Part shown: positions 8,727 to 42,807 of the stretch, piece by piece
Layout of the letters: every line of letters begins with the position of its first letter
How positions within the stretch are numbered: position 1 is the first letter of the stretch
DNA from: an uncultured Chloroflexia bacterium
Lineage (GTDB): Bacteria > Chloroflexota > Limnocylindria > Limnocylindrales > CSP1-4
Direction of reading: 5' to 3'
Length of the DNA stretch: 64,000 nt
Assembly (NCBI GenBank): GCA_963703155.1
Contig: OY969796.1
Span: forward strand, 3,175,652 to 3,239,651
Translations under genes and position numbers: made by a program
Notes under the pieces: generated by a model
What the model saw: the letters and a program-made list of their open reading frames with translations, nothing else
Database searches by the model: none
What the model was told of the DNA's origin: nothing

Positions 8727-8905
8727 GCGTACCGAGTCCGTGCCGGTCGCTAGGGCGCAGTCTGCGTCGGGGTCATGGGGGCGGGGATATCCTCGGGACC
8801 ACCCTCCCGCAACGGCGTCCCGTGCCCGGGGCCATTTGACCGCTGGAGCGATTCCTCTGACGATCCGACCAGCGCGAACGGCGCCTCGCAGCCACAAGGG
8901 GACTC

Positions 8906-9514
8906 ATGACGGCGCCGGATGACGAACTGCACGCGTCGGAGCGCGGCTCGGCCGCCCGCGGCTGCGTGCTCGAGCTGGTCGAGACGCTCGTCCTCACCCT
9001 CGTCATCTTCCTGGTCATCCAGAACTTCGTCGCCCAGCCGTTCCGGGTCCAGATGTCCTCGATGGAGCACACCTTCGAGCCCGACCAATACGTCCTGATC
9101 GACCGGATCTCGCACCTCTGGAGCCCGTACCAGCGCGGGCAGGTCATCGTGTTCCGGCCGCCGGAGAGCGCCAGCGAGCAGGGCGACCCGTTCATCAAGC
9201 GCGTCATCGGCGTGGCCGGCGACACCGTCGACATCCGGGGCGGGCAGGTGTACGTGAACGGCAAGGCCCTCGACGAGCCCTATCTCTTCCGCAACGACGC
9301 AGGCGAGGTCGAGCCCACCGAGGCCAACGGCGGCCAGTCGCACTGGGTGGTGCCCGACGGCCAGCTCTTCGTGATGGGCGACCACCGGCAGGTGTCGGTC
9401 GACAGCCGGGTGTTCGGCTTCGTCGCCGTCTCGTCGGTCATCGGCCGCGCCGTCCTCCGCTACTGGCCGCTGCCGACCTTCGAGGTGGTGCAGACGCCCA
9501 CGTACGGTCCGTAG
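8906..9514 (+). CDS. lepB: signal peptidase I
   Basis: N-terminal TM, Ser box (QMSSMEHT), Lys box (IKRVIGVAGD), GDHRQVSVDSR box; RBS AAGGGG before ATG. Confidence 0.8.
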   Translation: MTAPDDELHASERGSAARGCVLELVETLVLTLVIFLVIQNFVAQPFRVQMSSMEHTFEPDQYVLIDRISHLWSPYQRGQVIVFRPPESASEQGDPFIKRVIGVAGDTVDIRGGQVYVNGKALDEPYLFRNDAGEVEPTEANGGQSHWVVPDGQLFVMGDHRQVSVDSRVFGFVAVSSVIGRAVLRYWPLPTFEVVQTPTYGP

Positions 9515-9612
9515 CGCCTCCCCCTGCTGCGTTCTCCGTCTCGCGGCGCCGCCTCCGGGAGTCCCGCCCATACGGCCGCACGACCATCGGCATGGCACGC
9601 ACGCCTTGCCCC

Positions 9613-9653
9613 TTGACGCCGCGCCCCCCCGGTGAGATAGTTGCTCGTGCAAC
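9613..9653 (+). promoter_or_regulatory. putative promoter region upstream of pirin gene (-35 TTGACG) with CCCGGTGAGATAG motif copy and GTTGCtcgtGCAAC hairpin
   Basis: TTGACG at 9613..9618; motif-family copy and short palindrome between it and the ATG at 9675. Confidence 0.3.
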
Positions 9654-9674
9654 AACTCTCAGGAGCGTCCCGAC

Positions 9675-10676
9675 ATGCCGGCCGTCAGCGTTGACGACAT
9701 CACCGTCCTCCCCCGCATCCCCGCCCCGGACCCGATCGCCGCGAAGCACCGCGCCGTCGTCGCCCTGACCACGGCCCCATCGGGCTTCGAGGGCGAGGGC
9801 TTCCCCGTCCGGCGTGCGTTCGCGGGCGCCCTCCTCGAGGACCTCGACCCGTTCATCCACCTCGACCAGATGGGCGAGGTGGAGTACGCGCCCGGCGAGG
9901 CGAAGGGGACGCCGTGGCACCCCCACCGCGGCTTCGAGACCGTGACGTACATGCTCGACGGCGTCTTCGAGCACGCCGATTCCAATGGCGGCGGCGGCGT
10001 CATCACCAACGGCGACACGCAGTGGATGACCGCGGGTGCCGGGATCCTGCACATCGAGAAGCCCCCGGAGTGGCTGGTGGCCCAGGGGGGCCTGTTCCAC
10101 GGCTTCCAGCTGTGGGTGAACCTGCCGCGCGACCAGAAGCTCGCGACGCCGCGCTACCAGGACATCCGTGCCGGAGAGGTCGCGCTCGCGTCATCGCCCG
10201 ACGGCGGCGCGCTCGTCCGCGTCATCGCCGGCGAGGTCGCCGGCCACAAGGGGCCCGGCTCCACCTACACGCCCATCACGCTCGTCCACGCGACGCTCTC
10301 GCCGGGCGCGGAACTGGAGCTGCCGTGGCGCGCCGACTTCAACGCCCTCGGCTACGTGCTCGCGGGACACGGCACGGTGGGCGCCGAGCGACGGCCGGTG
10401 CGCATGGGCCAGCTCGCGGTCTTCGGTCCCGGCAACACGCTGACCTTCGCGGCTGACGCGGTCCAGGAGTCGCGCGCACCGACGCTCGACGTCCTGCTGC
10501 TCGGCGGGCGGCCGATCCGCGAGCCCATCGCCTGGATGGGCCCGTTCGTGATGAACACGCGCGAGGAGGTCCTCACGGCCTTCCGCGACTACCAGGCCGG
10601 GCGCCTGGGGACGATCCCCGCAGTCCACGGCGCGCCCACGACGATCCAGACATCAAGCCCATCGGAGCGTGCCTAG
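9675..10676 (+). CDS. pirin-family protein (bicupin, quercetinase-like)
   Basis: 333 aa; pirin N-terminal motif WHPHRGFETVTYMLDG and two cupin halves. Confidence 0.85.
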   Translation: MPAVSVDDITVLPRIPAPDPIAAKHRAVVALTTAPSGFEGEGFPVRRAFAGALLEDLDPFIHLDQMGEVEYAPGEAKGTPWHPHRGFETVTYMLDGVFEHADSNGGGGVITNGDTQWMTAGAGILHIEKPPEWLVAQGGLFHGFQLWVNLPRDQKLATPRYQDIRAGEVALASSPDGGALVRVIAGEVAGHKGPGSTYTPITLVHATLSPGAELELPWRADFNALGYVLAGHGTVGAERRPVRMGQLAVFGPGNTLTFAADAVQESRAPTLDVLLLGGRPIREPIAWMGPFVMNTREEVLTAFRDYQAGRLGTIPAVHGAPTTIQTSSPSERA

Positions 10677-10724
10677 CAAGGCCGTCGCTCGTCGCTCGTC
10701 GCGCGTCGTTCGTCCCGGCCGTCG

Positions 10725-10868
10725 CTCGTATCTCCTCCGGGAGGAAGTTGTCCGACGAACGTCGCTCGCATCTCCTCCCCACGAAGATGCGAGCGATGCG
10801 GGCGCCTCGCCGAGCACGAGGCCGCAGCCCGCTGGCTGCATAAGCTTCCCCGGGAGGAGATACGAGGG
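10725..10868. repeat. repeat-rich element: inverted terminal copies CTCGTATCTCCTCCGGGAGG (10725..10747) / CCCCGGGAGGAGATACGAGGG (10845..10868) flanking an 11-bp-stem hairpin (10762..10796); second direct copy of CGTCGCTCG(C/T)ATCTCCTCC
   Basis: Direct inspection: the two ends are near-perfect reverse complements; hairpin TCGCTCGCATC...GATGCGAGCGA; 292-bp intergenic region pirin/prolyl-oligopeptidase. Confidence 0.6.
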
Positions 10869-10968
10869 AACGGCGGGCGGTCTGGAGGCGAGGCAGACCA
10901 GCGTGGTCGCGGTATCGATCGCCGAGGGCAAGCGGCGAGACCCGACGCCCAGCGCCGCCCGATACGAT

Positions 10969-13045
10969 GGCGGCATGCCCACCTCGTACCCCATCCCGCC
11001 CACGTCCGACCAGGTTGACGACTACCACGGCACCCTGATCGCGGATCCCTACCGCCCGCTCGAGGATGCCGACGCGCCGGCAACGCGCGCCTGGATCGAC
11101 GCCGAGAACGTGCTCACGGAGTCGGTGCTCGGCGCCGTGCCGGGACGCGAGGCGATCCGGGCGCGGCTCGCGCAGCTCTGGGACGTCCCGCGCCGCGGGG
11201 TGCCCTGGCGTCGCGGCGAGCGCTGGTTCCAGCTCCGCAACACCGGCCTCCAGAACCAGGACGTGCTGTGGACGGCCGACGGGCCGCGGGCCGAGGGGCG
11301 CGTCCTGCTCGACCCGAACGCCCTCAACGCAGCCGGCACCACGACGCTCAACGCCATCTCCGTCTCGGAGAGTGGCCGCCTCGTCGCGATCGCGACCTCG
11401 GAGGCCGGCTCCGACTGGCAGACGTGGCGCGTGATCCGCGCGCGACGACGGCACCGAGCTGCCCGACCGCGTCCCGTGGAGCAAGTTCGCCGGCGCGGCG
11501 TGGACGCGCGACGAGGCCGGGTTCATCTACGGCCGCTTCCCCGAGCCCGCGGCCGGTGACGCCTTCGACGCGCCGAACCGCGGGATGCAGCTGTGCTACC
11601 ACCGGCTCGGATCGGATCCGGCCGACGACCCCGTCGTCCACGAGCGACCCGACCACGACGACTGGGGCTTCGAGCCCGAGGTCTCCGAGGACGGCGACCT
11701 GCTCGTCATCACGGTCTGGCGCGGCACGGACCCCGAGACGCGCATCCATGTCGCCGACCTGCGCGGGTTCACGGCTAGCGATCCGCTCGAGGTGCGCCCG
11801 CTGCTCGACGCAGCGGATGCGGAGTACGAGCTGATCGCCGCCGTCGGCCGAACCCTCTACCTGCGCACGAACCTCGGCGCGCCGAACCGCCGCCTCGTCG
11901 CGGTCGACGCCGACGATCCCGCCGTGATGCTCCGCGAGGTCATCGCCGAGGGCCCGGACGCGCTCGAGCGGGTCACGCTTGCGGGCGGGCGGTTCGCCGC
12001 CGTCACCCTTCACGACGCCCACAGCCGCCTCGCCCTGTTCGAGCTCGACGGCACGCCCGTCGGCCCGGTGGAGCTCCCGGGCGCCGGCACCATCGACGCC
12101 ACCTCCGGCCGTCGCGAGGATGAGAGGCTGTACCTCGCGCTGGACCAGTTCACGGCGCCCAAGCGGGTGCTGGCCGTTCGGGTCGCCGACGGCAGCGTCG
12201 AGAGCCCGCCTGACGAGGGCCTGCCGTGGGATCCCGCCGCCTTCGTCACCGAGGAGGTCTTCCCGGTCTCCGCTGACGGGACGCGCTTCCCGCTGTTCCT
12301 CGCCCATCGTCGCGACGTCCAGCCCAACGGCGACGTGCCGACGATGCTGTACGGCTACGGCGGGTTCAGCATCGCGGTGGGGCCCCGGTTCAAGCCGGAG
12401 TGGCTGGCCTGGATGGAGCGCGGCGGCCTGCTCGCAGTCGCCTCGCTGCGCGGCGGCTCGGAGTACGGCACGGCCTGGCACGACGCCGGGCGCCTCGCCA
12501 ACAAGCAGAACGTTTTCGACGATTTCGCGGCCGCCCTCCGCTGGCTCGCTGGCAGCGGGTGGACTCGGCCGGTCCGGATCGGCATCACGGGCCGCTCGAA
12601 TGGCGGGCTCCTCGTGGGCGCAGCGCTGACCCAGCACCCGGAACTGCTCGGTGCGGCCGTTCCCGAGGTCGGCGTGATGGACATGCTCCGGTTCCACCGG
12701 TTCACCATCGGCTGGGGCTGGACGAGCGACTACGGCAACCCCGACGACCCCGAGCAGTTCGCCTGGGTCCGGGCCTACTCGCCGCTCCACGGCATTCGGC
12801 CCGGCACCGCCTATCCGCCGACGCTGGTGACGACGGCCGACCACGACGATCGCGTGGTGCCCGGCCACTCGTTCAAGTTCGCCGCCGCGCTCCAGGCGGC
12901 CCAGGCGGGTGACGCCTGCGTGCTCATCCGGGTCGACACCGACGCCGGCCACGGCGCCGGCAAGCCGGTGAGCAAGCTGATCGCCGAGCGCGCCGACGTC
13001 CTCGCGTTCCTCGAGTCCGCGCTGGGCGACGCGCCGGGGGCATAG
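10969..13045 (+). pseudogene. prolyl oligopeptidase (S9A), frameshifted: N-terminal propeller in frame 1 (10969 to about 11440), remainder in frame 2 (to 13045)
   Basis: N-terminus YHGTLIADPYRPLED and C-terminal catalytic domain (GITGRSNGGLL, DHDDRV, HGAG) lie in two track ORFs (10669.. and 11585..); the frames join at a CGCGCGCG run at 11437..11444; total length is 3n+1. Confidence 0.7.
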
Positions 13046-13059
13046 CCCGCAGCACATTC

Positions 13060-13097
13060 CGCAATAAGTATTGCGCAATGGTTGTTGCGGATATATC
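13060..13097 (+). promoter_or_regulatory. putative ArsR-family operator (CGCAATAagTATTGCG palindrome plus overlapping TTGCGCAA) and -10-like TATATC placed for a leaderless transcript at ATG 13106
   Basis: AT-rich island in high-GC DNA directly upstream of the ArsR-like gene; perfect 7-bp inverted arms. Confidence 0.45.
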
Positions 13098-13105
13098 ATG
13101 ACGCC

Positions 13106-13690
13106 ATGAGCGAAGCGCGCGTCAAGCAGGTCACCGATCTGGCCGGGCTGCGGGCCCTCGGCCACCCCCTCCGGCTCCGGCTCCTCGGCCTGCTTCGCGC
13201 AGGCGGCCCCGCCACGGCAACGGTCCTCGGCGACAAGGTGGGAGCGGCGCCCAATGCCGTCAGCTACCACCTCCGGCAGCTCGCGAGGGCAGGCTTCATC
13301 GAGCCGGCCGAGACAGGTGGCGCTGACCGACGCGAGCACGCCTGGAAGGCCAGCCACGACGTGACGTCCTGGGAGCCGTCGGGCTTTGGCGATTCGCCCG
13401 AGTCGAGCGCCGCCGCAGACCTCCTCCGCCGCAGGATCTTCGACGCCTACGAGCAGGCCATCGAGGGGTACCTGCGCGGCGAATCGGAGGAGCCGGCCTC
13501 GTGGCGCGAAGCCGCCGGGTTCGGCGACCTCGCGTTCCGTGCGAGCCCGGACGACCTCAAGGCCGTGCTGGCAGAGGTGAACGCCGTCGTCGCCCGCCAC
13601 CAGCAGCGCGCCCGCAGTGCCGAGGACGACCCTGGCGCACGGACCGTCATGGTCATCTGGCACGGCATTCCGCTGCCGGCCGACCGATGA
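13106..13690 (+). CDS. ArsR/SmtB-like winged-helix transcriptional regulator
   Basis: ORF from TTG 13082, in-frame ATG 13106; HTH region LRLRLLGLL...NAVSYHLRQLARAGFI; stop overlaps downstream MFS start. Confidence 0.65.
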   Translation: MSEARVKQVTDLAGLRALGHPLRLRLLGLLRAGGPATATVLGDKVGAAPNAVSYHLRQLARAGFIEPAETGGADRREHAWKASHDVTSWEPSGFGDSPESSAAADLLRRRIFDAYEQAIEGYLRGESEEPASWREAAGFGDLAFRASPDDLKAVLAEVNAVVARHQQRARSAEDDPGARTVMVIWHGIPLPADR

Positions 13691-15006
13691 GCAGCCAGCC
13701 GCGTCCGAGCGTCGCCCGCCGCCTCGCGGGACGGCTCGTGTCTCCCCTGCTCCGCGAGGAGGACTTCCGGCATTTCTGGCTCGGCCAGACGATCTCGGTC
13801 TTCGGCGACCAGGTCACGCAGCTCGGCCTCCCGCTGGTCGCCGTGCTCGTGCTGGGCGCCGACGCGACGCAGATGGGGACGCTGCTCGCGGTGGGCCTCC
13901 TGCCGCACCTGCTGTTCTCGCTGCCGGCGGGCGTCTGGCTGGACCGGGTTCGCCATCGCCGCCGACTGATGATCGCCGCCGACATCGCCCGAGCTGCGCT
14001 CATCGCCAGCATCCCCGTCGCCTCCATCGCGGGTGTCCTGTCGATGGCCCAGCTCTACGTCGTCGGCTTCCTTGCCGGCTCAATGGCGGTCGTGTTCGAC
14101 ATCTCCTGGAACACGCTGCTGGTGGCGGTCGCGCGCCGCGACGCGTTCGTCCAGGCGAACGCGCTCTTCTCCGGCAGCCGCGCGCTCGCGTTCGTCGGCG
14201 GTCCGCCGCTGGCTGGCGTGCTGGTCCAGGTCCTGACGGCGCCGATCGCGCTGGTCGCCGACGCCCTGTCGTTCGTCGGCTCGGCGTTCTACCTGAGGCG
14301 CATCCACGCCGAGGAGCCGCCGATCGACATCGTCGAGGAATCGCTGCGCACGAGGCTCTCGACGGGCCTGCTGTTCATCTTCCGCGACTCGATCATGCGC
14401 CCGATCCTGCTGTCGGTCGCGACGATCAACCTGTTCAACTTCTGCTTCCAGGCGCTCTTCATCCTGTACGTCACGACTCGGCTCGGGGTGAGCCCGGGCG
14501 TGCTCGGCGCGGCCCTCGGCGCCGGGGCGGTCGGCGGGGTCATCGGGGCGCTGATCGCCTCGCGTGTCGGCAGGCGGCTGGGCCTGGGCGGGGCGTACAC
14601 GCTCGGCTGCGTGCTCTTCCCGGTCCCGATCATCCTCGTGCCGCTGGTCACCGGGCCATCCGAGGCCGTCATCGCGATGCTGTTCGCGGTGGAGTTCCTG
14701 GCAGGGCTCGGCGTGCAGATCCTCGACATCAACGTGGGGGCGGTCCTCGCGGCCCGGACCCCGGACGCGATCCGCTCCCGGTCGGGCGGCGCGTTCCGGT
14801 TCATCAACTACGGGATCCGGCCGGTCGGGGCGTTCCTCGGCGGGCTGCTGGGTGGCATCGTCGGGGTCCGCGAGACGCTGTTCGTGGTCACGATCGCGGC
14901 CTCGCTGGGCGTGGTGTGGCTGATCGGGTCGCCGATCCCGGGCCTGCGCGACATGCCGGAGCCTGCGCGGCTCGGGCCCGAACCGGCAGCGGAAGGCCCC
15001 GCGTAG
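13687..15006 (+). CDS. MFS transporter (EntS/MFS_3-like, 12 TM)
   Basis: ATG overlaps ArsR stop (ATGA); hydrophobic 12-helix pattern; MFS-type start [14 protein letters not shown]. Confidence 0.75.
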
Positions 15007-15081
15007 AGGCGGCGGCCTGGCCAGGGGCTCCCGGCCCGCGCCACGAGTGGCGTCCTGCCCCGCCGTCTCCGGGCGACGAGC

Positions 15082-16738
<1,657 letters not shown>

Positions 16739-16824
16739 CGGGGCCTCGATCTGGGCACGGCGGGGATCGTCGTGTGCACGATAGCGCTCCCCGCCGCCAC
16801 CCGGATGGTCAGGCGCCGACCAGC

Positions 16825-16963
16825 TCGCCCCCGGGGAGGCGCTTGTCCGCTCCGCGACCCCCCCCTATCGCCCCCGGGAGGCGATACGGGGCCAGGCGCC
16901 GAAGGTCCGAGCGTGGAGCCCGAGTCCGACTCGCGATAATCGCCTCCCGGGGGCGATAGGGGG
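16825..16963. repeat. 31-bp inverted repeat pair CCCCCTATCGCCCCCGGGAGGCGATACGGGG (16861..16891) / GCGATAATCGCCTCCCGGGGGCGATAGGGGG (16933..16963) with a partial third copy at 16825..16842; each copy internally palindromic around CCCGGG
   Basis: Direct inspection of the pgm / ABC-ATPase divergent intergenic region; same TATC-CCGGG-GATA architecture as the 10.7-kb and 42.7-kb elements but with compensatory TCC/GGA -> GCC/GGC changes. Confidence 0.6.
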
Positions 16964-17186
16964 ACGGATCGCGCAAGCCGCGGCCGCGCAATCTGCGGCA
17001 CGACGCGGTGCGACGGCACGACGCGGAGCGCCCTGGCGGCGCGAGGGCATGGCGCTGCGATGCGCGGCGTCGTACGATGCGCCTGACCCGAGCCAGCTCC
17101 TCGTACGGGGCTCGTCCTAGTCCGCCAGCTTGTTCCGGCGGCAGGATGCATGAGCCCGCGATGCCTGGGCGGGATGGAGGTTCCTC

Positions 17187-18287
<1,101 letters not shown>

Positions 18288-18360
18288 CCCAAACCCGTAC
18301 TTACGGCAACGGCCGGTCCGCCTGCGGCGGGCCGGTCGTTCCACGTCTGGGAGGCCAGCC

Positions 18361-26835: not shown

Positions 26836-27230
26836 GGCCCGCAGTCTACCCGAGGGCGCGAAACGGCCGATCAGCGACGTTCGCGGATGTTCCTCTGGAG
26901 GCGACGGCACTCCGTGAATTCGCGACCGGCGTCGGGCTAGGTCGCCGACACGGCCTCGCCCGCCCCGGCGACGCCAGCGCGTGCACAGGCGCGTGCTGAA
27001 ACGGCAGGAGTTGTCACGCAGTCGAAGGACGACTGCTCGACCATGGTCCGGCCGCGAAGTCCCGTCAGGGAGTCCGACGACGGGTGCCTGTCAGCGGGTT
27101 CGCCGCTGAAGCGGCTCTCGAAGCCGAAGCCGACCTTTCCCGCGCCGACCACCACTCGTGCTTCGACTGCCTGTCAGAAACGGGCCGTGAGAATCGACGC
27201 GGCTGCGCGGCAGGGCCGGCGACGACCCGA

Positions 27231-33522: not shown

Positions 33523-34616
33523 GCCTCCGACTCGGTGCCCGCGATGGCCGACAGGATCAGCCGCCGGTCTACCATGCCCACCAGCCTCCCGTCGTCGACA
33601 ACTCTGACCGGGGCGTCCGCGGTGGCTGCAGCGTGGACCGCGGTGCGGATGACGGCGGTCGAGGGGAACTCGGGGCCGTCGAGGCGGTCGTCCGGGCGCA
33701 CCTCGCGCATGATCCAGCCAAGCGTGAGGACGTACGACTTGGGGACGTCCTGGACGAAGTCGGCCACGTAGTCGTCGGCGGGGGCGCCCACGATCTCCTC
33801 GGGCCGGCCGATCTGGACGATCTCGCCCGCCCGCATGATCGCGACGTGGTCGCCCAGCTTGAGCGCCTCGGCGAGGTCGTGGGTGATGAAGATCATCGTC
33901 TTGCCCACCTCGTGGTGGAGCCGGATGACCTCGTTCTGCATGTCCCGCCGGATGAGCGGGTCGAGCGCGCTGAACGGCTCGTCGAACAGCATGACCTCGG
34001 GGTCCACCGCGAGCGCCCGGGCCAGGCCCACCCGCTGCTGCATGCCGCCCGAGAGCTGGTCCGGGTAGCGCATCTCCTGGCCCTCGAGGCCGACGAGCGA
34101 GAGCATGTGGGCCGCCTTGTCGCGGCGCGCCTTCTTGGGCTCGCCGCGGATCTCCAGGCCGAACGCCACGTTGTCGATCACCCGCCGGTGAGGCAGCAGG
34201 CCGAAGTGCTGGAACACCATGGAGAACCGGTGGCGGCGCAGCTCCCGGAGGCGGGCCTGGGACGCCTTGCCGATGTCCTCCTTGTCCAGGAGCACCTCGC
34301 CCGCGGTGGGCTCGATGAGGCGCGTGAGGCAGCGGATGAGCGTGGACTTGCCCGAGCCGGACAGGCCCATCACCACGAACACCTCGCCCGGGCGGACGTC
34401 GAAGCTCACGTCGCGGACGGCCACGTTCGAGCCGGTGGCGAGTCGCAGCTCGTCCCGCGGGAGCTCGGCGAGGGCCGTGCCGATGATCTTGTGCTCGCCG
34501 GGCCCGAAGATCTTCCACAGGCCCTTGACCGAGATCGCCGTCTGGGCGACGGGCTCCTGCGCCGCAGCGAGGCGGGCCTGCGCGAACGGTCCAGGGGCGG
34601 GGAAGGTGGCGGTCAT
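33519..34616 (-). CDS. proV: glycine betaine/proline ABC transporter ATP-binding protein with C-terminal CBS pair (ProV/OpuAA)
   Basis: Walker [19 protein letters not shown], Walker [13 protein letters not shown]-terminal CBS domains. Confidence 0.85.
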
Positions 34617-34782
34617 GCCCGTGAGCCCCGACAGGTCTCCGGCGGTGTGTGGGCGAGAGACACGAGGTCAGCTCCTCCATGGAATGCGTCGCCCCGCTCC
34701 CGGGCGACGAAGCGCACAGAGTAGGCGCTGACGGCCAGGAGCGTCAGGCTCGTTGTGCAGGCCGCGTTGGTCCTGCCGCGGG

Positions 34783-35574
34783 TCATGCCGCCCCCCTCCG
34801 GTCGCGCCAGCCGAGCCTGCGCCCGATCTCGTCGCCCGCCGCCATCACGGCCGCGGCAACGGCCTCGAACCGATCCGGGCCCAGCCGGTACGAGGGGCCA
34901 GACGCGCTGACCGCGGCCACCACGGCGCCGTCGTGGCCGCGGATGGGCGCCGCGATCGCATTGAGCCCCACCTCCAGCTCTTCGCGCGTGGAGGCCCAGC
35001 CGGACGCCGCCACGCCGGCAAGCTCGCGCTCGAGGGCGGAGCGGTCGGTGATGGTCGTCGGCGTGAAGCGCTCCAGCGGTCGGGCCAGCAGGCGGGCGCG
35101 CTCCGCGGGGTCGGAGGAGGACAGCAGCACCTTGCCGCTCGAGGTGGCGTGGAGCGGGGTCCGCTGGCCCACCCAGTTCTGGGTCGCGACGGTGGCGCCG
35201 CCGAGCACCTGGTCCAGGTTGACCACCGCATCGCCCTCGAGGCGGGCCACGTTGACGGTCTCCCCCACCTCGGCGGCCAGGCGGCGCGAGACGGGCCGGC
35301 TCTGCTCCACCAGGTCGAGGCGTCCGGCGGTGGCGCCAGCGAGACGGACGATCCCGAAGCCGAGGCGGTAGCGCCCGCGCTCGCTGACCTGCTCCACGAG
35401 GCCGCGGGCCTCGAGCACGGCGAGCAGCCGGTGGGCGGTGCTCTTGTGCACGCCCAGGGCCGCGGCCAAGTCGGTCACGGCTCCGTCCTCGCGCTCGGCG
35501 AGGTACTCGAGCACGTCGATGGCGCGGTCCACCGACTGGATCACGGCCGGCACCTCGAGGCGGCCCTCAGCCAT
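34783..35574 (-). CDS. IclR-family transcriptional regulator (last gene of corrinoid methyltransferase operon)
   Basis: ATG 35574 inside longer track ORF; HTH plus IclR effector domain; start overlaps upstream gene stop. Confidence 0.8.
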   Translation of the reverse strand: MAEGRLEVPAVIQSVDRAIDVLEYLAEREDGAVTDLAAALGVHKSTAHRLLAVLEARGLVEQVSERGRYRLGFGIVRLAGATAGRLDLVEQSRPVSRRLAAEVGETVNVARLEGDAVVNLDQVLGGATVATQNWVGQRTPLHATSSGKVLLSSSDPAERARLLARPLERFTPTTITDRSALERELAGVAASGWASTREELEVGLNAIAAPIRGHDGAVVAAVSASGPSYRLGPDRFEAVAAAVMAAGDEIGRRLGWRDRRGAA

Positions 35575-36106
35575 GCCCGGCCCCCGCTCCCCCGGCGACC
35601 CCGGACGACAGCGCCGCGACGGCTTCCGCCAGTGATGCCAAGTGCCCGGCGTCGTGGCGCAGGACCTCGCCCAGAAGCCCCACCGCGTCCAGTTCACCGA
35701 ACCTGGCGTGGACCCCCGTGCAGCGCAGGGCGGCCTCGTCCATCGCCGCGACGGTCTCCACCACCTTGGCCCGAGCGGCGCAGAAGGCTTCGGACGCCTC
35801 GTCCGGGCTCGGGTCGGGTCGCCCGGCGAGGTCTGGCTCCGTCCACGGCCAGGACGGGTGGTCGTGCGCCGCCAGCTGGCGGAAGCGCGGCGTCCAGACC
35901 TCGGCGTCGACCGCCGCCAGGTGGACGACGATCCGGACCGGCGTCCAGCCGCCGTCAGGCCCCGGCGCGGTCGCCGCGTCGCCCAGCCTGTGGAGCATCG
36001 CGCCCGCCCACTCCGCCGCCTCACGCAGCGCGGGCACGAGGGCGGCCACGTCGGCAGCGCGGTTGGCGGCTCGTCCGTCGTCAGGGTCCGGGGCGGCCAG
36101 CGGCAT
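35567..36106 (-). CDS. DinB/YfiT-like (TIGR03083-type) putative metal-binding protein
   Basis: 179 aa from ATG 36106; DinB_2-like helical bundle with His-containing motifs (HLAAVDAEV, HDHPSW, HDAGHLASL); 2 bp after MttB stop. Confidence 0.45.
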   Translation of the reverse strand: MPLAAPDPDDGRAANRAADVAALVPALREAAEWAGAMLHRLGDAATAPGPDGGWTPVRIVVHLAAVDAEVWTPRFRQLAAHDHPSWPWTEPDLAGRPDPSPDEASEAFCAARAKVVETVAAMDEAALRCTGVHARFGELDAVGLLGEVLRHDAGHLASLAEAVAALSSGVAGGAGAGHG

Positions 36107-36108
36107 CG

Positions 36109-37650
36109 TCACTCCGCCGCGTCGGGCATGGACGCCTTCCGGCGCGCGATGAAGTCGAGGAGCGCCTCGTCCACCGCGGGGTCGATCGCCGGCGCCTCGT
36201 AGTCGGCGAGCATCTTCTTCCAGACTCGATTGGCGCGCGCCCGGGCGTCGAGCTCGCCGTCCTCGAGCCACTGCTCGTAGCTGTTGTTGTCGGCGATCTC
36301 CGAGCGGTAGAACGCGGTCTCGAAGTTGGCGAGGGTGTGCGCGGTGCCCAGGAAGTGCTGGCCCGGGCCGTTCTCGCGGATCGCGTCGAGCGCCTGCCCG
36401 TTCTCCGAGAGGTCCACGCCCTTGGCGAACACGCTCATCATCCCGAGCTGGTCGGCGTCCATGACGAACTTCTCGTAGCCGATCGTCAGGCCGCCCTCGA
36501 GCCAGCCCGCGGCGTGGAGGACGAAGTTCGTCCCGGCGAGGACCGTGGGCTGGAGCGTCGCCGCCGACTCATAGGCCGCCTGCGCGTCCTCGATCTTGGA
36601 CGCGGTCAGGCTGCCGCCGGAGCGGAACGGGACGCCGAGACGGCGGGCGAGCGCCGCCATCGTGTACAGCACCAGCGCGGGCTCCGGCGTGCCGAAGGTG
36701 GGCGCGCCCGACTGCATCGACATCGAGCTCGCGAAGGAGCCCAGGATCACCGGCGCCCCGGGGCGCACGAGCTGGGCGAGGGTCATGCCGCCGAGCGCCT
36801 CGGCGAGAGTCTGGGCGGCGACGCCGGCGGAGGTCACCGGGGCCATGGCGCCCGCCAGGATGAACGGCGTGACGATGCACGCCTGGTTCGCCGCCGCGTA
36901 GGTCCGCAGCGCGCCGAGCATCGTCGCGTCCCAGACGAGCGGCGAGTTGGCGTTGATGAGGCTGGTGACGACCGCGTTCTGGTCGACGAACTCCGCGCCG
37001 AACACGATCTTGGCCATCTCGACGGTGTCGGCGGCGCGCTCGGGCGCGGTGACCGAGCCCATGAACGGCTTGTCCGAGTACCGGATGTGGGCGTAGACCA
37101 TGTCGAGGTGGCGCTTGTTGACGGCGACGTCAGTGGGCTCGCAGACCGTGCCGCCCGAGTGGTGGAGGTTCGGCGAGGCGTAGGCGAGCTTGACGAAGTT
37201 CTCGAAGTCCTCGAGCGTCGCGTACCGCCGACCGCCCTCAAGGTCCCGCACGAACGGCGAGCCGTAATTGGGCGCGAAGACCGTGTTCATCCCACCGATC
37301 GTCACGCTGCGCTCGGGGTTCCGGGCGTACTGGACGTAGGTGCGCGGGGCGCTGGCCTGGACGATCGAGCGGCACAGGCCGGCCGGGAATCGGACCCGCT
37401 CGCCGTTGACATCGGCGCCGGCGTCGCGCAGCAGGCGGAGCGCCTCCGGATCACCGCGGAACTCGAGGCCCACCTCCTGGAGGATGACGTCGGCGTTGTG
37501 CTCGATGAGCGAGAGGCCCTCCTCGGAGAGCACCTCGAACGGCGCCATGGTCCGGGTGAGGAACGGGGCGCGCGCCACGGCCGAATGGGCACGGGCCGCC
37601 TGGCGCCCGGCACGACCGCCGCTGCGCCGGCCGTGGAGATCGTCGGTCAT
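36109..37650 (-). CDS. MttB-superfamily (trimethylamine methyltransferase family, non-pyrrolysine) substrate:corrinoid methyltransferase; MtgB-like, predicted glycine betaine or related quaternary amine
   Basis: 513 aa uninterrupted (no in-frame amber); Arg-rich N-terminus RRSGGRAGRQAARA typical of non-Pyl MttB homologues; TIM-barrel family sequence; ATGA coupling to upstream gene. Confidence 0.75.
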   Translation of the reverse strand: MTDDLHGRRSGGRAGRQAARAHSAVARAPFLTRTMAPFEVLSEEGLSLIEHNADVILQEVGLEFRGDPEALRLLRDAGADVNGERVRFPAGLCRSIVQASAPRTYVQYARNPERSVTIGGMNTVFAPNYGSPFVRDLEGGRRYATLEDFENFVKLAYASPNLHHSGGTVCEPTDVAVNKRHLDMVYAHIRYSDKPFMGSVTAPERAADTVEMAKIVFGAEFVDQNAVVTSLINANSPLVWDATMLGALRTYAAANQACIVTPFILAGAMAPVTSAGVAAQTLAEALGGMTLAQLVRPGAPVILGSFASSMSMQSGAPTFGTPEPALVLYTMAALARRLGVPFRSGGSLTASKIEDAQAAYESAATLQPTVLAGTNFVLHAAGWLEGGLTIGYEKFVMDADQLGMMSVFAKGVDLSENGQALDAIRENGPGQHFLGTAHTLANFETAFYRSEIADNNSYEQWLEDGELDARARANRVWKKMLADYEAPAIDPAVDEALLDFIARRKASMPDAAE

Positions 37651-39686
37651 CGTTCCTCCTCGTGGGCGGCGACGGGCTGGCGCCGCCGGCGTCGTTCGGT
37701 TCGCTCGTCCCGGCCCGCACGGCCCGCCGCCGGCCGCGCCGGCAGCTCCACCACGCGCCCGAGGTTGGGGTACGCAGCGGTCCTGTGCGGGATCGCCAGC
37801 GCATCGACGAAGTGCTCCTGGAAGCGCGGCTCGATCGCGGTCTCGAGCTTGTTGACCTCGCGGACCACGGTCTCGATCTCGCGCCGCGCCGCGCCCGACA
37901 GCAGCGCGATCAGGGCGCCGGCGCCCGCGGCGTTGCCCGCCGACCCCACCCGCGCGAGGTCACAGTCGGGCACCAGGCCCAGCACCATGGCGTGCGTCGT
38001 GTCGATGTGGCTCCCGAAGGCGCCCGCGAGGCGGACCTCGTCGACCGCGTCCACGCCGTAGGCGTCCATCAGCAGCCGCGCCCCCGCGTACAGGGCGGCC
38101 TTGGCGAGCTGGATCGCGCGAACGTCGTTCTGGGTGACGAGGACGCGCGGCTCGCCCTCGTGCAGGACGTAGCTGAAGGTGCGCCCGTCGGCGATCACGC
38201 GGGGTGTCCTTGCGGCCAGCGACCCGTCGATGATCCCGTCAGCGGTGATGACCCCCGCGAGGAACAGCTCCGCGATCACCTCGATGATCCCCGAGCCGCA
38301 GATGCCGGTGATCCCGGTGTCGGCAGTGACCTCGGCGAAGCCCGGCTCGTCGGACCACAGCGTGGAGCCGATGACACGGAAGCGCGGCTCGAGCGTTCCG
38401 CGGTCGATGCGGACGCGCTCGATGGCGCCCGGCGCGGCGCGCTGCCCGGACGAGATCTGCGCGCCCTCGAACGCCGGCCCCGTGGGGCTGGACGCCGCGA
38501 GCAGGCGGTGGCGGTTGCCCAGCACGAGCTCCGCGTTCGTCCCCACGTCCACGATGAGCGTGACGGCCTCTGCGAGGTGCGGCTGCTCGGAGAGGATCAC
38601 GCCGGCGGTGTCGGCGCCCACGTGCCCGGCGATGCAGGGCAGCACGTAGACGCGGGCGCCCGGGTGGACGCCGAGCCTGAGCTCCGCAGCGGTGGTGTGG
38701 ACGGCGCGCTCGGTCGCCAGCGTGAACGGCGCCTGGCCCAGCGGCGTCGGGTCGAGGCCCAGCACGAGGTGGTGCATGATCGGGTTGCCGACGAGCGCGA
38801 TCTCGAGGATCTCCTCGCGCTCCACGCCGGCGGTCGTCGCCAGGCTGCCGATCAGCTCCCGCAGCGCCGTGCGCACTGCCGTGGTCATCTCGGCCGCGCC
38901 CCGCTCGTGGAGCATGGCGTACGAGACCCGGCTCATCAGGTCCTCGCCAAAGCGGATCTGGGGGTTCATCACGCCGGCCGACGCGAGGACGGTCCCGTCG
39001 AGCAGGCTTGCCAGGTGCGCCGCGATGGTGGTCGACCCGATGTCGACCGCCACGCCGTACGCGCGGTCGCGGAACCCTGGCCACGCGGCGATCAGCGTGT
39101 GGCCGTCGTGGACGGCGACCGTCACCTTGCCGGCGCCCGCCTCGACCGCGGCCTGGAGCGCGCGCGTCGCCGCAAGGTCGGCATCGAGCGTCTCGATCCC
39201 CCACTCCCGCGCCAGCGCCTGCTGCACGCGCACGAGGTCAGAGGCGGGCGAGGCGAGGTCTGGCAGCGCGGCCTCGACGTAGTGGAGCCTCGTGACCGGG
39301 TCGAGCTCGAACGGGCGGACCTCGAGCTCCTTGCGGACCACCTGGCGGTGCACCTGCGAGGCGGCCGGCACGTCGATGACGGCGTCACCCAGCAGGCCAG
39401 CCGTGCAGGCGAGCCGGCGCTTGGGCGCCAGGCCCTTGCGCGCGGCGTAGTCGGCCTCCACCGCGTCGGGCGCCGACACGTTGGCCGGGGCCGAGGTGAT
39501 GCCGTGCTTGGGGAACTCGCCGACGCTCTGCTCCACCTGGCAGCGGCCGCAGATCCCCCGCCCGCCGCACACCGAATCGATGTCCACGCCCAGCTTGCGG
39601 GCCGCGTCGAGCACGGTCGTGCCCACGGGGAAGTGCCCCCGGCGGCCCGAGGGCGTGAAGATCAGCAGGGGATCGGGCGATCCCAC
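37647..39686 (-). CDS. corrinoid reductive activation protein (N-terminal 2Fe-2S ferredoxin + ASKHA/DUF4445 ATPase; RamA/RACo-like)
   Basis: Plant-type ferredoxin Cys pattern CGGRGICGRCQ...C; large ASKHA-like ATPase body; coordinates taken from ORF track (the printed sequence appears off by one base in this region by my count). Confidence 0.7.
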   Translation of the reverse strand: MGSPDPLLIFTPSGRRGHFPVGTTVLDAARKLGVDIDSVCGGRGICGRCQVEQSVGEFPKHGITSAPANVSAPDAVEADYAARKGLAPKRRLACTAGLLGDAVIDVPAASQVHRQVVRKELEVRPFELDPVTRLHYVEAALPDLASPASDLVRVQQALAREWGIETLDADLAATRALQAAVEAGAGKVTVAVHDGHTLIAAWPGFRDRAYGVAVDIGSTTIAAHLASLLDGTVLASAGVMNPQIRFGEDLMSRVSYAMLHERGAAEMTTAVRTALRELIGSLATTAGVEREEILEIALVGNPIMHHLVLGLDPTPLGQAPFTLATERAVHTTAAELRLGVHPGARVYVLPCIAGHVGADTAGVILSEQPHLAEAVTLIVDVGTNAELVLGNRHRLLAASSPTGPAFEGAQISSGQRAAPGAIERVRIDRGTLEPRFRVIGSTLWSDEPGFAEVTADTGITGICGSGIIEVIAELFLAGVITADGIIDGSLAARTPRVIADGRTFSYVLHEGEPRVLVTQNDVRAIQLAKAALYAGARLLMDAYGVDAVDEVRLAGAFGSHIDTTHAMVLGLVPDCDLARVGSAGNAAGAGALIALLSGAARREIETVVREVNKLETAIEPRFQEHFVDALAIPHRTAAYPNLGRVVELPARPAAGRAGRDERTERRRRRQPVAAHEEER

Positions 39687-39699
39687 GACCGGCTCGGCC

Positions 39700-40611
39700 T
39701 CAGCCAGCCGCGACCGCGGACCGGCGCTTGTTCACGCGCCGCTCGCGACCATCAGCCGCCTCGGCATTGGGATCCCGGTTGGCGCGGATCCAGGCGGCGG
39801 CGTCAGCGTCGTTGCCCAGCAGCACGTCGGCGGCCATGATGGCCTTGCGGACGTCGGGCAGCAGCGGGTTGGTGATCGCCGAGGTCAGGCCGTTGCTGAT
39901 GGCCATGGCCAGGAACGCCGAGTTGATCCCCTCGCGGGCCGGCAGGCCGAAGCTGACATTCGACGCGCCGCAGGTGGTGTTCACCTTGAGCTCGTCGCGC
40001 AGGCGGTTGAGCAGCGCGAACACCTGGCGGCCGGCGGTGCGCATGGCGCCGATGGGCATGACCAGCGGGTCCACGATCACGTCCTCGCGCGGAATCCCGT
40101 GGTCGGCGGCGCGCTCGACGATCCGCTTGGCCACGGCGAACCGCACGTCGGGGTCGATGGAGATGCCGGTGTCGTCGTTGGAGATGGCCACCACCGCCGC
40201 GCCGTACTTCTTCACCAGCGGCAGGACGCGCTCCATGCGCTCCTCCTCGCCGGTGACCGAGTTGACCAGCGCCTTTCCCTGGTAGACCGAGAGCCCGGCC
40301 TCGAGCGCGTCCATGATCGACGAGTCGATCGAGAGCGGCAGGTCGGTCAGCGACTGGACGAGCTTGACGGTGCGGGCCAGGATCCCGGGCTCGTCGGCGA
40401 GCGGGATGCCGGCGTTGACGTCGAGCATGTGGGCGCCGGCCTCGACCTGGGCCAGCACGTCGCGCTCCACTCGGCTGAAGTCGCCGTTGCGCATCTCCTC
40501 GCCCAGCAGCTTGCGGCCGGTGGGGTTGATCCGCTCGCCGATGACCACGAACGGGAGGTCACCGCTGATGACCACCTCGCGGGTCGCCGAGCTGATGACG
40601 GTGCGGGTCAT
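39700..40611 (-). CDS. pterin-binding methyltransferase (MtrH/MtgA-like methylcorrinoid:tetrahydrofolate methyltransferase)
   Basis: 303 aa TIM-barrel pterin-binding (DHPS-like) pattern; ATGA coupling with upstream small gene. Confidence 0.6.
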   Translation of the reverse strand: MTRTVISSATREVVISGDLPFVVIGERINPTGRKLLGEEMRNGDFSRVERDVLAQVEAGAHMLDVNAGIPLADEPGILARTVKLVQSLTDLPLSIDSSIMDALEAGLSVYQGKALVNSVTGEEERMERVLPLVKKYGAAVVAISNDDTGISIDPDVRFAVAKRIVERAADHGIPREDVIVDPLVMPIGAMRTAGRQVFALLNRLRDELKVNTTCGASNVSFGLPAREGINSAFLAMAISNGLTSAITNPLLPDVRKAIMAADVLLGNDADAAAWIRANRDPNAEAADGRERRVNKRRSAVAAG

Positions 40612-40958
40612 GGGGCCTCCGTGGGGACTGGCGCCGGGGATGCGGTCGGCGTGGCGGGCGGGGCGGCCTCGAAACCGCGGTTGGCGGTGAGCGCAGCGAG
40701 GCGCGCCCGGGGGAATTCGGCTTCGATGCGGGCGACCTCGGCGGCCACCTCCGCCTCCAGGTCCTCACCGCAGGGCCGGCTGGTTCGGCGCCACTCGGCG
40801 AGGTACTCGTCCATGTCCTTCTTGCCGGCCCTGGTGGCGGCCTTGTCGATGGCCATCTGGAACCGGAGCGGCAGCATCGCCTTGGCCGTGCGGCGGCTCT
40901 CCTTGGCCGTGACCTGGGCCGGGATGTCGCGCCACGAGATCAGCGTGAGGGTGGCCAT
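40608..40958 (-). CDS. small conserved accessory protein ('virulence factor'-family-like) of corrinoid methyltransferase clusters
   Basis: 116 aa; translationally coupled on both sides; position between DUF1638 and MtrH-like genes as in alphaproteobacterial MttB clusters (family name from memory). Confidence 0.4.
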   Translation of the reverse strand: MATLTLISWRDIPAQVTAKESRRTAKAMLPLRFQMAIDKAATRAGKKDMDEYLAEWRRTSRPCGEDLEAEVAAEVARIEAEFPRARLAALTANRGFEAAPPATPTASPAPVPTEAP

Positions 40959-41710
40959 CAGGCGACGGCCTCGTCCGGGTCGTCTGCGGCGTCCGGGGCG
41001 GTCGTTCCCGGGTCCGCGTCCCTCCCCGCGCCGTCCGCGTCGGCCACCCCGCGCCCGTCGCCTGCCTTCACGGCCAGTCCGCCGGCCAGCCCCGCAATCG
41101 CGGTGCCAAGCTCGCCATACCCCGTGGGCCGATGCTCGAACGCCAGTCCCAGCCGGACGGCCGCCCGGCGCGCCATGTCCAGGACCTCGGGGTCGTCGTG
41201 CTGGGAGAGGTAGACCACCCGCTGGTAGCCCGCGAAGTACACGGGCAGCAGCTCCGGGTGGCGGTCGAGCCCGAGGCCGCGGACCACCAGCGCATCGAAG
41301 CTGCGCGCCAGGAAGTCCGTCAGGTAGAAGGTGCCCGGCTCCTCAGCCGCGAGTGCCGTGAACGCTGCGAGGCCCGTGAACGCGGCATAGCAGTGGGCGC
41401 CCGGCAGGCGGTCGGCGCCATGCTTGGCCAGCACCGTGTCCAGCGCGCCGCCTGTGCCGCAGTCCGCGTAGGCCACGAACACCCGGTCGTAGCCCGCGCC
41501 GAGCTCCGAGAGCTTCGCGTCGACCGCGGGCGCGATCTGCTCCGGCCGGTTGTGGAGCTGCGCGGGCAGGCAGCGCACGTCGACGGCCGCGGCCAGCCCG
41601 TTGCGCTCGACGAGCTCGAGCAGCTCGCGGGCGAGCGCACCACAGCCCACGACGAGCGTGGGGGCGTGGGCGGCAGGGGACGCGCCGGGCTGGCGCCCGC
41701 GATCGGTCAC
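40958..41710 (-). CDS. DUF1638-domain protein
   Basis: 250 aa; GTG start in GTGA overlap with corrinoid protein stop; conserved YADCGTGG...PGAHCY pattern. Confidence 0.5.
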   Translation of the reverse strand: MTDRGRQPGASPAAHAPTLVVGCGALARELLELVERNGLAAAVDVRCLPAQLHNRPEQIAPAVDAKLSELGAGYDRVFVAYADCGTGGALDTVLAKHGADRLPGAHCYAAFTGLAAFTALAAEEPGTFYLTDFLARSFDALVVRGLGLDRHPELLPVYFAGYQRVVYLSQHDDPEVLDMARRAAVRLGLAFEHRPTGYGELGTAIAGLAGGLAVKAGDGRGVADADGAGRDADPGTTAPDAADDPDEAVA

Positions 41711-42384
41711 GCGACGAACTTGCGGGCCGTTTCTGCGGCGATGGCGGCGTCGCGGCAGTAGGCGTCGGCGCCGACCGCCATCGCGAACTCCTCGTTGAGC
41801 GGCGCGCCGCCCACGAGGACCACGTACTTCTCGCGGATGCCGCGGTCCTTGAGCGCCTGGATCACGACCTTCATGTACGGCATCGTGGTGGTGAGCAGCG
41901 CGGACATGCCCAGGATGTCGGGCTTGTGCTCCTCGAGCGCGGCGAGGAACTTCTCCGCGTCCGTGTTGACGCCGAGGTCGATGACCTCGAAGCCCGCGCC
42001 CTCGAGCATCATCCCGACCAGGTTCTTGCCGATGTCGTGGATGTCGCCCTTCACCGTGCCGATGACGACCTTGCCGACGGGCTTGGCGCCGGTCTCGGCG
42101 AGCAGCGGACGCAGGATGGCCATGCCGGCCTTCATCGCGTTGGCGGCGAGCAGCACCTCCGGGACGAACAGGATGCCGTCGCGGAAGTCGACGCCCACGA
42201 TGCGCATGCCCTCGACGAGTGCCTCGGCAAGGACCTTGTCGGCGCCCCAGCCGCGCCCGAGAAGGATCTTGGTGCCCTCGACCGTCTCCGGCGCGAGGCC
42301 GTCATACAGGTCGTCATGCATCTGGCTGACCAGTTCCTCGTCGCTCAGCGAGGCGAGGTCCAGTTCCTGCTCGTCGGTTCCCAT
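41707..42384 (-). CDS. cobalamin-binding corrinoid protein (B12-binding domain plus N-terminal cap; MtgC/MtbC-like)
   Basis: ATG 42384; B12-binding motifs DIHDIGKN (DxHxxG), SALLTT (SxL) and VLVGGAP (GG). Confidence 0.85.
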   Translation of the reverse strand: MGTDEQELDLASLSDEELVSQMHDDLYDGLAPETVEGTKILLGRGWGADKVLAEALVEGMRIVGVDFRDGILFVPEVLLAANAMKAGMAILRPLLAETGAKPVGKVVIGTVKGDIHDIGKNLVGMMLEGAGFEVIDLGVNTDAEKFLAALEEHKPDILGMSALLTTTMPYMKVVIQALKDRGIREKYVVLVGGAPLNEEFAMAVGADAYCRDAAIAAETARKFVA

Positions 42385-42664
42385 TGGCTCCTGCCGGTGG
42401 CGCTTTGTCGCGGATGGCGCAACGAGTTGCGGATTGCGCAACGGACAATAGACGAAGGCCGCGGGCGTGTCCAGACGGTTCCGCGCGCCGCGCCAACGGC
42501 GGGTTTCGCCTACCGGGCCGCGCCCCATTCCGCAGCACCGGCACCGGGACGGTGGTGTCGCGTCCCCAAACCCGTGGCCACGGTCACCGCCCTCGCGTAC
42601 ACCACAGGGGCGGTGGCCGCGGCGGTGGCGGGCACACCCGAGTGGGAGCCCGCTGGAGCACCGC

Positions 42665-42807
42665 ACCTATCTCCCCCCGGAGACGGTTATCCAATCGTCG
42701 CCGCGGCACTCGTGCTCAGTGCCCAGCGCGGGGACCCTTCTGACTAACCCCCGGGAGGAGATAGGAGCGCAATTCGCGTGACAAGCCGCGTCGGGAGGAG
42801 ATACGAG
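42665..42807. repeat. three copies of the TATCTCC-CCGG-GAGGAGATA palindromic motif (42665..42687 inverted/degenerate; 42747..42765; 42789..42807 direct)
   Basis: Direct inspection of the 463-bp intergenic region between gntR 3' end and the corrinoid operon start. Confidence 0.55.

Follow-up and report, generated by a model that had tools for sequence, protein, structure and literature searches.

Three diverged copies of a GC-rich foldback element in intergenic spacers of a Limnocylindria-group Chloroflexota genome

Much work has been done on small foldback repeats in Proteobacteria, Neisseria and streptococci, and those of the miniature inverted-repeat transposable element (MITE) type include Correia/NEMIS of Neisseria, ERIC/IRU of the enterobacteria and RUP of Streptococcus pneumoniae. 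Limnocylindria is an abundant, uncultured class of soil and freshwater. Repetitive extragenic palindromes (REPs), bacterial interspersed mosaic elements (BIMEs) and REP doublets forming hairpins (REPINs) are mobilised by REP-associated tyrosine transposases (RAYTs) (PMC3116915, PMC3733652, PMC6006769). By definition a REP has a GT[AG]G or CGTC tetranucleotide at the foot of its hairpin, each unit forms its own short hairpin with a basal stem of 7-20 paired nt and a loop of 2-5 nt, and units stand in inverted pairs with a 20-100-nt spacer, in tens to hundreds of copies per genome and with a single-copy Y1 (RAYT) gene flanked by the repeats (PMC6006769, PMC3733652). The lone Chloroflexi example in the survey of Di Nocera et al. 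is the GTAG-23 REPs of Thermomicrobium roseum (PMC3733652), and the searchable literature on small foldback repeats of Chloroflexota holds this one REP family (Thermomicrobium) and none for Limnocylindria. For the soil Limnocylindria family CSP1-4, a comparative study reports an elevated density of transposases and intergenic spacers longer than in the rest of its class, and the word "repeat" is absent from the main text of that study (PMC13212565). The subject of the present analysis is a 64-kb stretch of contig OY969796.1 (hereafter the window; GC 72%), for which a preliminary description had listed a dispersed family of GC-rich palindromes and half-copies at five intergenic sites. Three of these sites, at 10.7, 16.9 and 42.7 kb, are three diverged copies (A and B on the forward strand, C on the reverse) of one non-coding foldback element, and what had been taken for free palindromes and half-copies is instead a single composite element, about 165 nt long, whose three units keep a fixed layout in each of its three copies.

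The layout common to A, B and C runs from unit 1 over 40-43 nt to unit 2 and over a further 92-95 nt to unit 3, where units 1 and 2 are direct repeats at the left end and unit 3 stands inverted at the right. From the outer TATC to the outer GATA the element spans 134-136 nt, which becomes about 165 nt when the terminal inverted repeats are counted in full, the longer repeat being seen in A and C. Each copy carries, in three versions, a motif of about 25 nt, (CGCxCx)TATC[T/G]CC[T/C]CC(C)GG(G)RGG, of which the invariant flank is TATC, read as CATC in one unit and degenerate in B unit 1. The core offsets are 29/69/153 in A, 27/70/153 in B and 28/68/154 in C, and the segments between units measure 30, 33 and 30 nt (A, B and C) from unit 1 to unit 2 and 74, 73 and 76 nt from unit 2 to the inverted unit 3. 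The parts are as follows.

10714-10877, forward: copy A, with a 28-nt terminal inverted repeat that is 82% complementary; likeness to C extends from about 10700 to 10885
10729-10738, forward: core of A unit 1, TATCTCCTCC
10762-10796, forward: A unit 2, with core CATCTCCTCC at 10769-10778 and its own 14-bp hairpin (-15.1 kcal/mol, z = -6.0)
10853-10862, reverse: core of A unit 3 (inverted), TATCTCCTCC
10810-10827, forward: central block of A, CCGAGCACGAGGCCGCAG, common to all copies in the three-way alignment (16908-16925 in B; 42701-42719, reverse, in C)
16809-16968, forward: copy B, the G/C variant, with 25-nt arms (16861-16885 and 16939-16963) that are 100% complementary, and with unit spacing as in A and C
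16823-16832, forward: core of B unit 1, degenerate, GCTCGCCCCC
16866-16886, forward: B unit 2, a full palindrome, TATCGCCCCCGGGAGGCGATA
16949-16958, reverse: core of B unit 3 (inverted), TATCGCCCCC
42653-42831, reverse: copy C, alignable to A, with 19-nt arms (42662-42680 and 42751-42769) that are 89% complementary
42794-42803, reverse: core of C unit 1, TATCTCCTCC
42754-42763, reverse: core of C unit 2, TATCTCCTCC
42668-42677, forward: core of C unit 3 (inverted relative to the element), TATCTCCCCC

The likeness of the copies extends beyond the repeated cores. A on the forward strand and C on the reverse are alignable over about 185 nt, and A as a single nhmmer query retrieves C at E = 2e-7. 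When the 10-nt cores were removed and what remained was scored by segment-wise global alignment against shuffles, all three pairs stood above the shuffles (A-C, z = 5.4; A-B, z = 3.1; B-C, z = 2.3), as did the segment between unit 2 and unit 3 (z = 2.4-4.1); BLAST with the cores masked did not recover the likeness between copies, and pairwise identity among them is 49-63%.

The motif is genuine and far above chance, and its enrichment is not an effect of composition. In the window TATC[T/G]CC[T/C]CC (the 10-mer TATCKCCYCC) has eight exact matches against 0.14 expected from dinucleotide-preserving shuffles, none of which attains eight, and all of the matches are confined to the three intergenic regions; on both points, frequency over a shuffled background and placement outside coding sequence, the preliminary description is borne out. 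The 13-mer TATCKCCYCCSGG gives nine matches at 0-1 mismatch, only within 10729-10862, 16866-16958 and 42668-42803, and at 2 mismatches it gains fifteen extra matches, which is chance level (24 in total against 18.5 expected). A profile from the aligned units finds 10 units in the window, exclusively in the three regions and all intergenic, and the two strongest inverted repeats of the whole window are 16861-16963 and 10714-10877. The two remaining sites of the original five are not members: 8789-8812 is matched by neither the pattern nor the unit profile, and 9624-9640, counted as a half-copy, is a 2-mismatch, chance-level match inside a sigma-70-like promoter, where it occupies the spacer and the -10 box. 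This promoter (TTGACG-17-GATAGT with an upstream TG, at 9613-9641 on the forward strand) precedes the pirin gene and is kept base for base in L082 and L089, two loci of relatives that are without the repeat family; after it, ahead of the pirin gene, comes a palindrome, AGTTGC-N4-GCAACAACT.

GC-rich genomes abound in short palindromes, and the 21-nt palindrome recurs by convergence in unrelated metagenome contigs, which would suit an origin of the family in chance, in the composition of a 72%-GC genome or in faulty assembly. We regard this explanation as having practically no probability, given the count of exact matches that no shuffle reaches, the identical three-unit layout, the significant core-free likeness and the embedding of the elements in otherwise syntenic gene contexts. 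The full 21-23-nt palindrome has 91 matches in metagenome contigs, mostly in V/A-type ATPase coding sequence (IGAVSPPGGD), and the remaining matches are unrelated single palindromes, none of them clustered and none from close relatives. In the metagenome loci concerned (L093-L182, 35-59% GC) it is the 21-nt palindrome TATC(T/G)CCTCC(C)GGAGG(A/C)GATA that encodes IGAVSPPGGD of V/A-type ATPase subunits, and this coding sequence is a trap for pattern searches with that motif.

Folded as single-stranded DNA, all three copies form long hairpins: copy A reaches -62.6 kcal/mol (z = -7.1), copy B -46.6 kcal/mol (z = -7.0) and copy C -30.3 kcal/mol (z = -4.7). The ends of the element are inverted copies of each other and so pair into a long hairpin, and the inverted arms, which are separated by 53, 70 and 108 nt, fold as one hairpin. 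In the consensus fold unit 3 pairs with unit 2 and the adjoining flanks, giving 52 pairs, 14 of which are kept via two-sided changes (three sequences being too few for statistical covariation). Among single units, A unit 2 alone clearly beats shuffles (14-bp stem, z = -6.0), while B unit 2 is marginal (z = -1.4) and six other units have z between -1.9 and +1.3. Most single units thus fold no better than shuffles, and the structured entity is therefore the whole element, by way of its terminal inverted repeats. The earlier placement of the family with REP/MITE-like repeats, as one that is dispersed, lies outside genes and forms hairpins, stands.

The units of a copy also resemble each other more than they resemble the units of other copies. 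Identity between units is 71% within a copy, 60% between copies and 58% between units at the same position in different copies (permutation p = 0.015). The most visible instance is a G/C switch, with TATCGCC/GGCGATA in every arm of the 16.9-kb copy and TATCTCC/GGAGATA in every arm at 10.7 and 42.7 kb, which shows the units of one copy resembling each other and the arms of a copy co-evolving. The preliminary description had recorded the change of TCC/GGA to GCC/GGC on both arms and had read it as selection on structure; the switch and the kept complementarity are confirmed, and selection on structure is not a necessary cause of them, given the likeness of units within a copy. That likeness could be explained by gene conversion, by hairpin-templated repair or by selection on pairing alike, and the data do not separate these. 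It would constitute a small case of concerted evolution inside a mobile element.

Several of these properties bear on the possibility that the family is one of REPs or REPINs in the strict sense, in which a RAYT-type (IS200/IS605-like HUH, Y1) transposase would recognise the TATC and the palindrome in single-stranded DNA, cut at the tag and copy the inverted pair in hairpin form, with no target-site duplication left behind. The tetranucleotide beside a palindrome, the inverted pairs with 53-108-nt spacers and the extragenic, species-specific placement match published REPs and REP dimers (PMC3733652, PMC6006769), a target-site duplication is not visible, other HUH classes have atypical tags (CnGA) (PMC6006769), and the within-copy likeness of units is compatible with hairpin-based copying. 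Against this, the tag is TATC rather than GT[AG]G or CGTC, six of the eight single units fold no better than shuffles, divergence among the copies is 37-51%, whereas REPIN populations typically form tight sequence clouds, there is no Y1 transposase gene among the window open reading frames (ORFs) scanned, and the REPIN-type paired pattern has 0 matches in metagenome contigs. Inverted pairs folding as one hairpin, together with extragenic and species-specific placement, are features that the family has in common with REPs and REPINs, and with MITEs, which are 50-500 bp long, it shares terminal inverted repeats of 19-28 nt on a short non-coding element of about 165 nt and internal homology of its copies, a flanking target-site duplication being the MITE feature that is not seen (a weak test). 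Weighing these together, we consider the strict REP/REPIN explanation unlikely.

The setting of the copies, for which flanking genes were annotated with Pfam, offers a further point of comparison. Copy A lies between a pirin gene (stop 10676, 24-37 nt before A) and a prolyl oligopeptidase gene (start 10975, 90-100 nt after A). Copy B lies between a diverging PGM-like gene (start 16738, reverse strand) and the malK-III leader (17089) of a malK-like gene, and copy C lies between a GntR-family gene (stop 42848, 16-27 nt away) and a corrinoid-protein/MttB-family methyltransfer operon, with C about 180 nt upstream of the operon's conserved promoter-like site (42473-42445). The earlier statement that several copies sit in divergent promoter regions holds for B only, as A and C begin 16-37 nt past a stop codon between co-directional genes. 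Each copy is co-oriented with its downstream gene, though with n = 3 this is not statistically meaningful. Scans of the three regions returned no promoter consensus inside the elements and no intrinsic terminator (a GC-rich stem-loop with a T-run), and Rfam 15 has no match on the elements at the gathering score or at E <= 5.

One reading of this setting is that the element is kept by the host as a structure, for example as a hairpin that shields or terminates the upstream transcript, a role known from some REPs, as an insulator separating adjacent transcription units or as a binding array for a nucleoid protein, with selection keeping the pairing. It draws on the start of A and C 16-37 nt past stop codons in the orientation of the upstream gene, on the orientation of all three copies with the downstream gene and on pairing preserved via two-sided changes. 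However, B lies between two diverging promoters, with no 3' end there to protect, the elements have no U-tract, relatives with the same genes manage without them, three co-oriented copies carry no statistical weight, and the preserved pairing is equally explained by the likeness of units within a copy; we therefore hold a host-kept structure, which would suit A and C only, to be rather improbable.

The host had been described as a high-GC Gram-positive, which its proteins do not support. The closest relatives of the PGM-like protein are Chloroflexota metagenome-assembled genomes at 85%, 82% and 78% identity, the 82% match being Candidatus Limnocylindrales, whereas Actinobacteria reach at most 70% (<=70%); pirin and corrinoid-protein homologues at 84-87% identity are named Candidatus Limnocylindrales or Limnocylindria, and the best pirin match in the protein collection is 96% identical. 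As the closest protein relatives are Limnocylindria-type Chloroflexota, the host is a high-GC Chloroflexota of the Limnocylindria group and not a Gram-positive actinobacterium. One corrinoid protein, P0121, was considered as coming from the same species and was rejected, being a tandem-domain protein of an unrelated lower-GC organism.

Contigs of relatives with 87-96% identical pirin retain a large part of the gene order. Searches of about 1.5 Mb of related loci with the 10-mer, the unit profile and the element profile found no copy; these loci include about 110 kb from relatives with 87-96% identical pirin. At the first site, the pirin-oligopeptidase spacer is about 57 nt in L082, the pirin of which is 94% identical, vs 298 nt in the window, and just the last ~25 nt of the L082 spacer before the start codon align with the window. 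At the second, the -10 boxes in the spacer between the PGM and malK genes are about 10 nt apart in L184 (the basal form) vs about 280 nt in the window, while L082 has about 215 nt of unrelated sequence at the same point and L001 and L085 have two extra genes each. At the third, L183 has 2.2 kb with two ORFs vs about 390 nt including element C in the window. The family is thus restricted to one lineage, in spacers that are variable among relatives, which fits insertion.

The same comparison bears on the proposal, made in the preliminary description, of a dimeric-binding-site geometry. On a regulatory reading of it, the copies would be operators of one dimeric transcription factor, and the genes beside them would be co-regulated by it. 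The core is indeed palindromic and every site is upstream of some gene. Close relatives that have the same genes nevertheless lack the sites at the matching promoters, where true promoter and operator motifs are conserved; C is about 180 nt upstream of a conserved promoter; no theme links the peptidase, the sugar-transport ATPase with PGM and the corrinoid methyltransfer operon encoded next to the copies; the same-base switch in both half-sites and in all units of one copy is a poor fit to a single regulator; and the conserved unit is about 165 nt rather than a single operator. We consider operator function very improbable, and the reading as regulatory, dimeric binding sites lacks support.

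With these alternatives in view, we lean, with a little more than even confidence, to the reading of the three copies as a non-autonomous mobile element of the MITE/REPIN kind that would be moved by an enzyme encoded elsewhere. The anatomy that we count toward a mobile element is that of a short non-coding module with terminal inverted repeats and a homologous interior, intergenic, lineage-restricted and absent from the matching spacers of relatives. Under this model the element would have spread within one lineage, settling in gaps between genes, and a transposase encoded elsewhere in the genome would probably bind the repeated terminal motif and move it. The enzyme could be either a classical transposase that binds terminal repeats (DDE) or an HUH enzyme that recognises a single-strand hairpin. 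The residence of the structure in the terminal repeats, together with three copies of a ~25-nt motif (two left, one right) that resemble binding sites, speaks for the classical transposase; the layout of a tag beside a palindrome, the lack of a visible target-site duplication and the within-copy likeness of units speak for the HUH enzyme. The units of a copy would keep each other alike, which would let the hairpin survive sequence change, including the T/A to G/C switch in B. We assign the element no host function; incidentally, A and C may serve as 3' untranslated region structures of the pirin and GntR-family transcripts.

A number of observations weigh against a mobile element and account for our restraint. 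Just three copies are visible in the 64-kb window, mobility is deduced from sequence, and no copy of the element was found outside the window in metagenome contigs or plasmid records, the latter having yielded nothing relevant and no match to a parent insertion sequence. No transposase or HUH domain occurs among the ~50 window ORFs scanned with Pfam, and no direct repeat that could be a target-site duplication was found at any hairpin-compatible boundary, which is a weak test given imprecise ends and old copies. In the corresponding spacers of relatives whose neighbouring proteins are 87-96% identical the elements are missing, and the divergence of the surrounding spacer DNA prevents a clean comparison of filled and empty sites. 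Finally, the copies differ from each other by 37-51%, vs 14-22% at third-codon positions between the host genome and element-free relatives, and this high divergence points either to several diverged source copies, to fast evolution of the element or to loss in relatives.

Three narrower readings of the ends and flanks were tried and dropped. An IS630/Tc1-type element, with a TA duplication flanking TC...GA ends, does not accommodate an inverted repeat and a between-copy likeness that run 9-17 nt past the TATC; an integron attC site lacks support because there are no GTTRRRY/RYYYAAC core sites at the element ends; and the inner TT(G/A)TCC flank is not a DnaA box, no match within 1 mismatch being found in the elements. 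Over the whole window the count of DnaA-box-like sites is at chance level; two such nonamers (TTGTCCACG), 12 nt apart, lie at 62486-62506 (reverse strand) upstream of a class II ribonucleotide reductase gene (from 62840).

The window and its relatives also hold other foldback sequences of similar size. A different element of ~160 nt with 65-nt imperfect arms is common to L089 (1367-1525) and L082 (9755-9912) in the lepB-pirin spacer (nhmmer E = 5e-12); the window spacer at this place (9515-9674) is just 160 nt and is without it. Two more intergenic inverted repeats of ~160 nt are found at 27012-27176 in the window (24-nt arms, 117 nt apart) and at 15260-15419 in L082 (31-nt arms, 98 nt apart), and these have AAGGACGACTG in common; kinship of the two was considered and rejected, their overall likeness not being significant. 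Several families of foldback elements have thus been gained or lost in the clade. A more far-reaching idea, which we mention as speculative and think improbable, is that TATC-tagged, three-site foldback replicators form an unrecognised class in soil Limnocylindria, kept by hairpin-dependent copying or repair or by a single-strand HUH transposase unrelated to the GTAG/CGTC REP-RAYT systems. If this were true, the likeness of units in a copy would be upheld by that copying or repair process or HUH transposase, the range of REPIN-like intragenomic replicators with vertical inheritance would take in Chloroflexota, and the relatives' other ~160-nt foldback families would be sister populations of the same system.

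The neighbourhoods of the copies have some features of their own. Downstream of A, the prolyl oligopeptidase gene (10975-13045) is split by a one-base insertion in a GCGCGCG run near 11437-11444, while its L082 ortholog is intact at 697 aa, and the frameshift is either a sequencing error or the mark of a recent pseudogene. Around B, the spacer between the diverging PGM and malK promoters (window 16739-17088, compared in L184, L082, L001, L085 and L002) is an insertion hot spot. Immediately to the right of B, short tandem repeats occupy 16970-17031, in the form of one pair of 15-nt units, CGCGCAAGCCGCGGC and CGCGCAATCTGCGGC, and one pair of 18-nt units, CGGCACGACGCGGTGCGA and CGGCACGACGCGGAGCGC. 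The malK-III cis-regulatory RNA (Rfam RF03009, 78.9 bits) lies at 17089-17189 (forward strand), directly upstream of a malK/msiK-like ABC ATPase gene (17187-18287), and the leader sequence is conserved in L001, L002, L082 and L184.

Near C, the true start of the corrinoid-protein gene is the ATG at 42384, as judged from homologue lengths (225-236 aa), and the ORF as called is over-extended by 94 codons, over 42384-42666 on the reverse strand, through element C. The promoter-like site upstream of this gene, TGGACA-17-TATTGT, is conserved, and the region 42420-42473 contains repeated TTGCGCAAT/GCAACTCGTTGCG motifs, a possible operator of the GntR- or IclR-type regulators nearby; a palindrome resembling them, TCCGCAATAAGTATTGCGCAATGGTTGTTGCGGA, is found at 13058-13091 before an ArsR-type regulator gene. 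In the MttB-family gene (36109-37650), which is without an in-frame stop, Rfam gives a sub-threshold PYLIS_3 match at 36510-36609 (reverse strand; 29.2 bits, gathering score 38), and this is probably a coding-sequence likeness in a non-pyrrolysine MttB homologue of the methyltransfer operon (corrinoid protein, RACo and pterin-binding methyltransferase).

The gain and loss of the window element and of the relatives' ~160-nt foldback elements suggests a source that would help explain the long spacers and the transposase density of CSP1-4 (PMC13212565). In practical terms, the elements mislead ORF callers, the corrinoid-protein and oligopeptidase ORFs being extended upstream here, and foldback elements can break assemblies and could serve as strain markers.

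Like REPs, BIMEs and REPINs, the family has a tetranucleotide beside a GC-rich palindrome, inverted pairs foldable as one hairpin, compensatory variation in the stem, strictly extragenic and species-specific placement and no target-site duplication; unlike them, it has a TATC tag in place of GTAG/GTGG or CGTC, most of its units have no stable hairpin, the element is a fixed three-unit module with a conserved spacer block, and there is no RAYT among the window ORFs scanned. With the GTAG-23 repeats of T. roseum it shares the phylum, a GC-rich genome, clustering of palindromic repeats and an association with small CCGG-type palindromes, but the tag and sequence are different, and the T. roseum repeats occur as big blocks at a small number of loci whereas the window elements stand singly at separate spacers. 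Gene-less derivatives of IS200/IS605, termed palindrome-associated transposable elements ('PATEs'), are likewise small and non-coding, have palindromic structures close to each end and show no target-site duplication; in IS200/IS605, however, one strand carries both end hairpins, neither of which is an inverted copy of the other, and the TTAC-like cleavage sites and guide relationship are not recognisable in the window element.

The MITE-type repeats offer a further comparison. Correia/NEMIS, ERIC/IRU and RUP are non-coding elements of 100-170 nt with terminal inverted repeats of ~20-30 nt that form one long hairpin; they are intergenic, often just past genes, and lineage-restricted, and in all of these respects the window element is like them. 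Their presence varies among relatives, as that of the window element may. It differs from Correia and RUP, which have target-site duplications, in that none is visible, and from all of these families in the third, internal copy of the terminal motif, which makes the ends asymmetric, with two sites on the left and one on the right. Its copies are also far more diverged (49-63% identity) and very GC-rich, and are without a parent insertion sequence in the window or in plasmid records. The three copies of the window are thus an undescribed family of a known kind of element in a little-studied clade, and not a new category.

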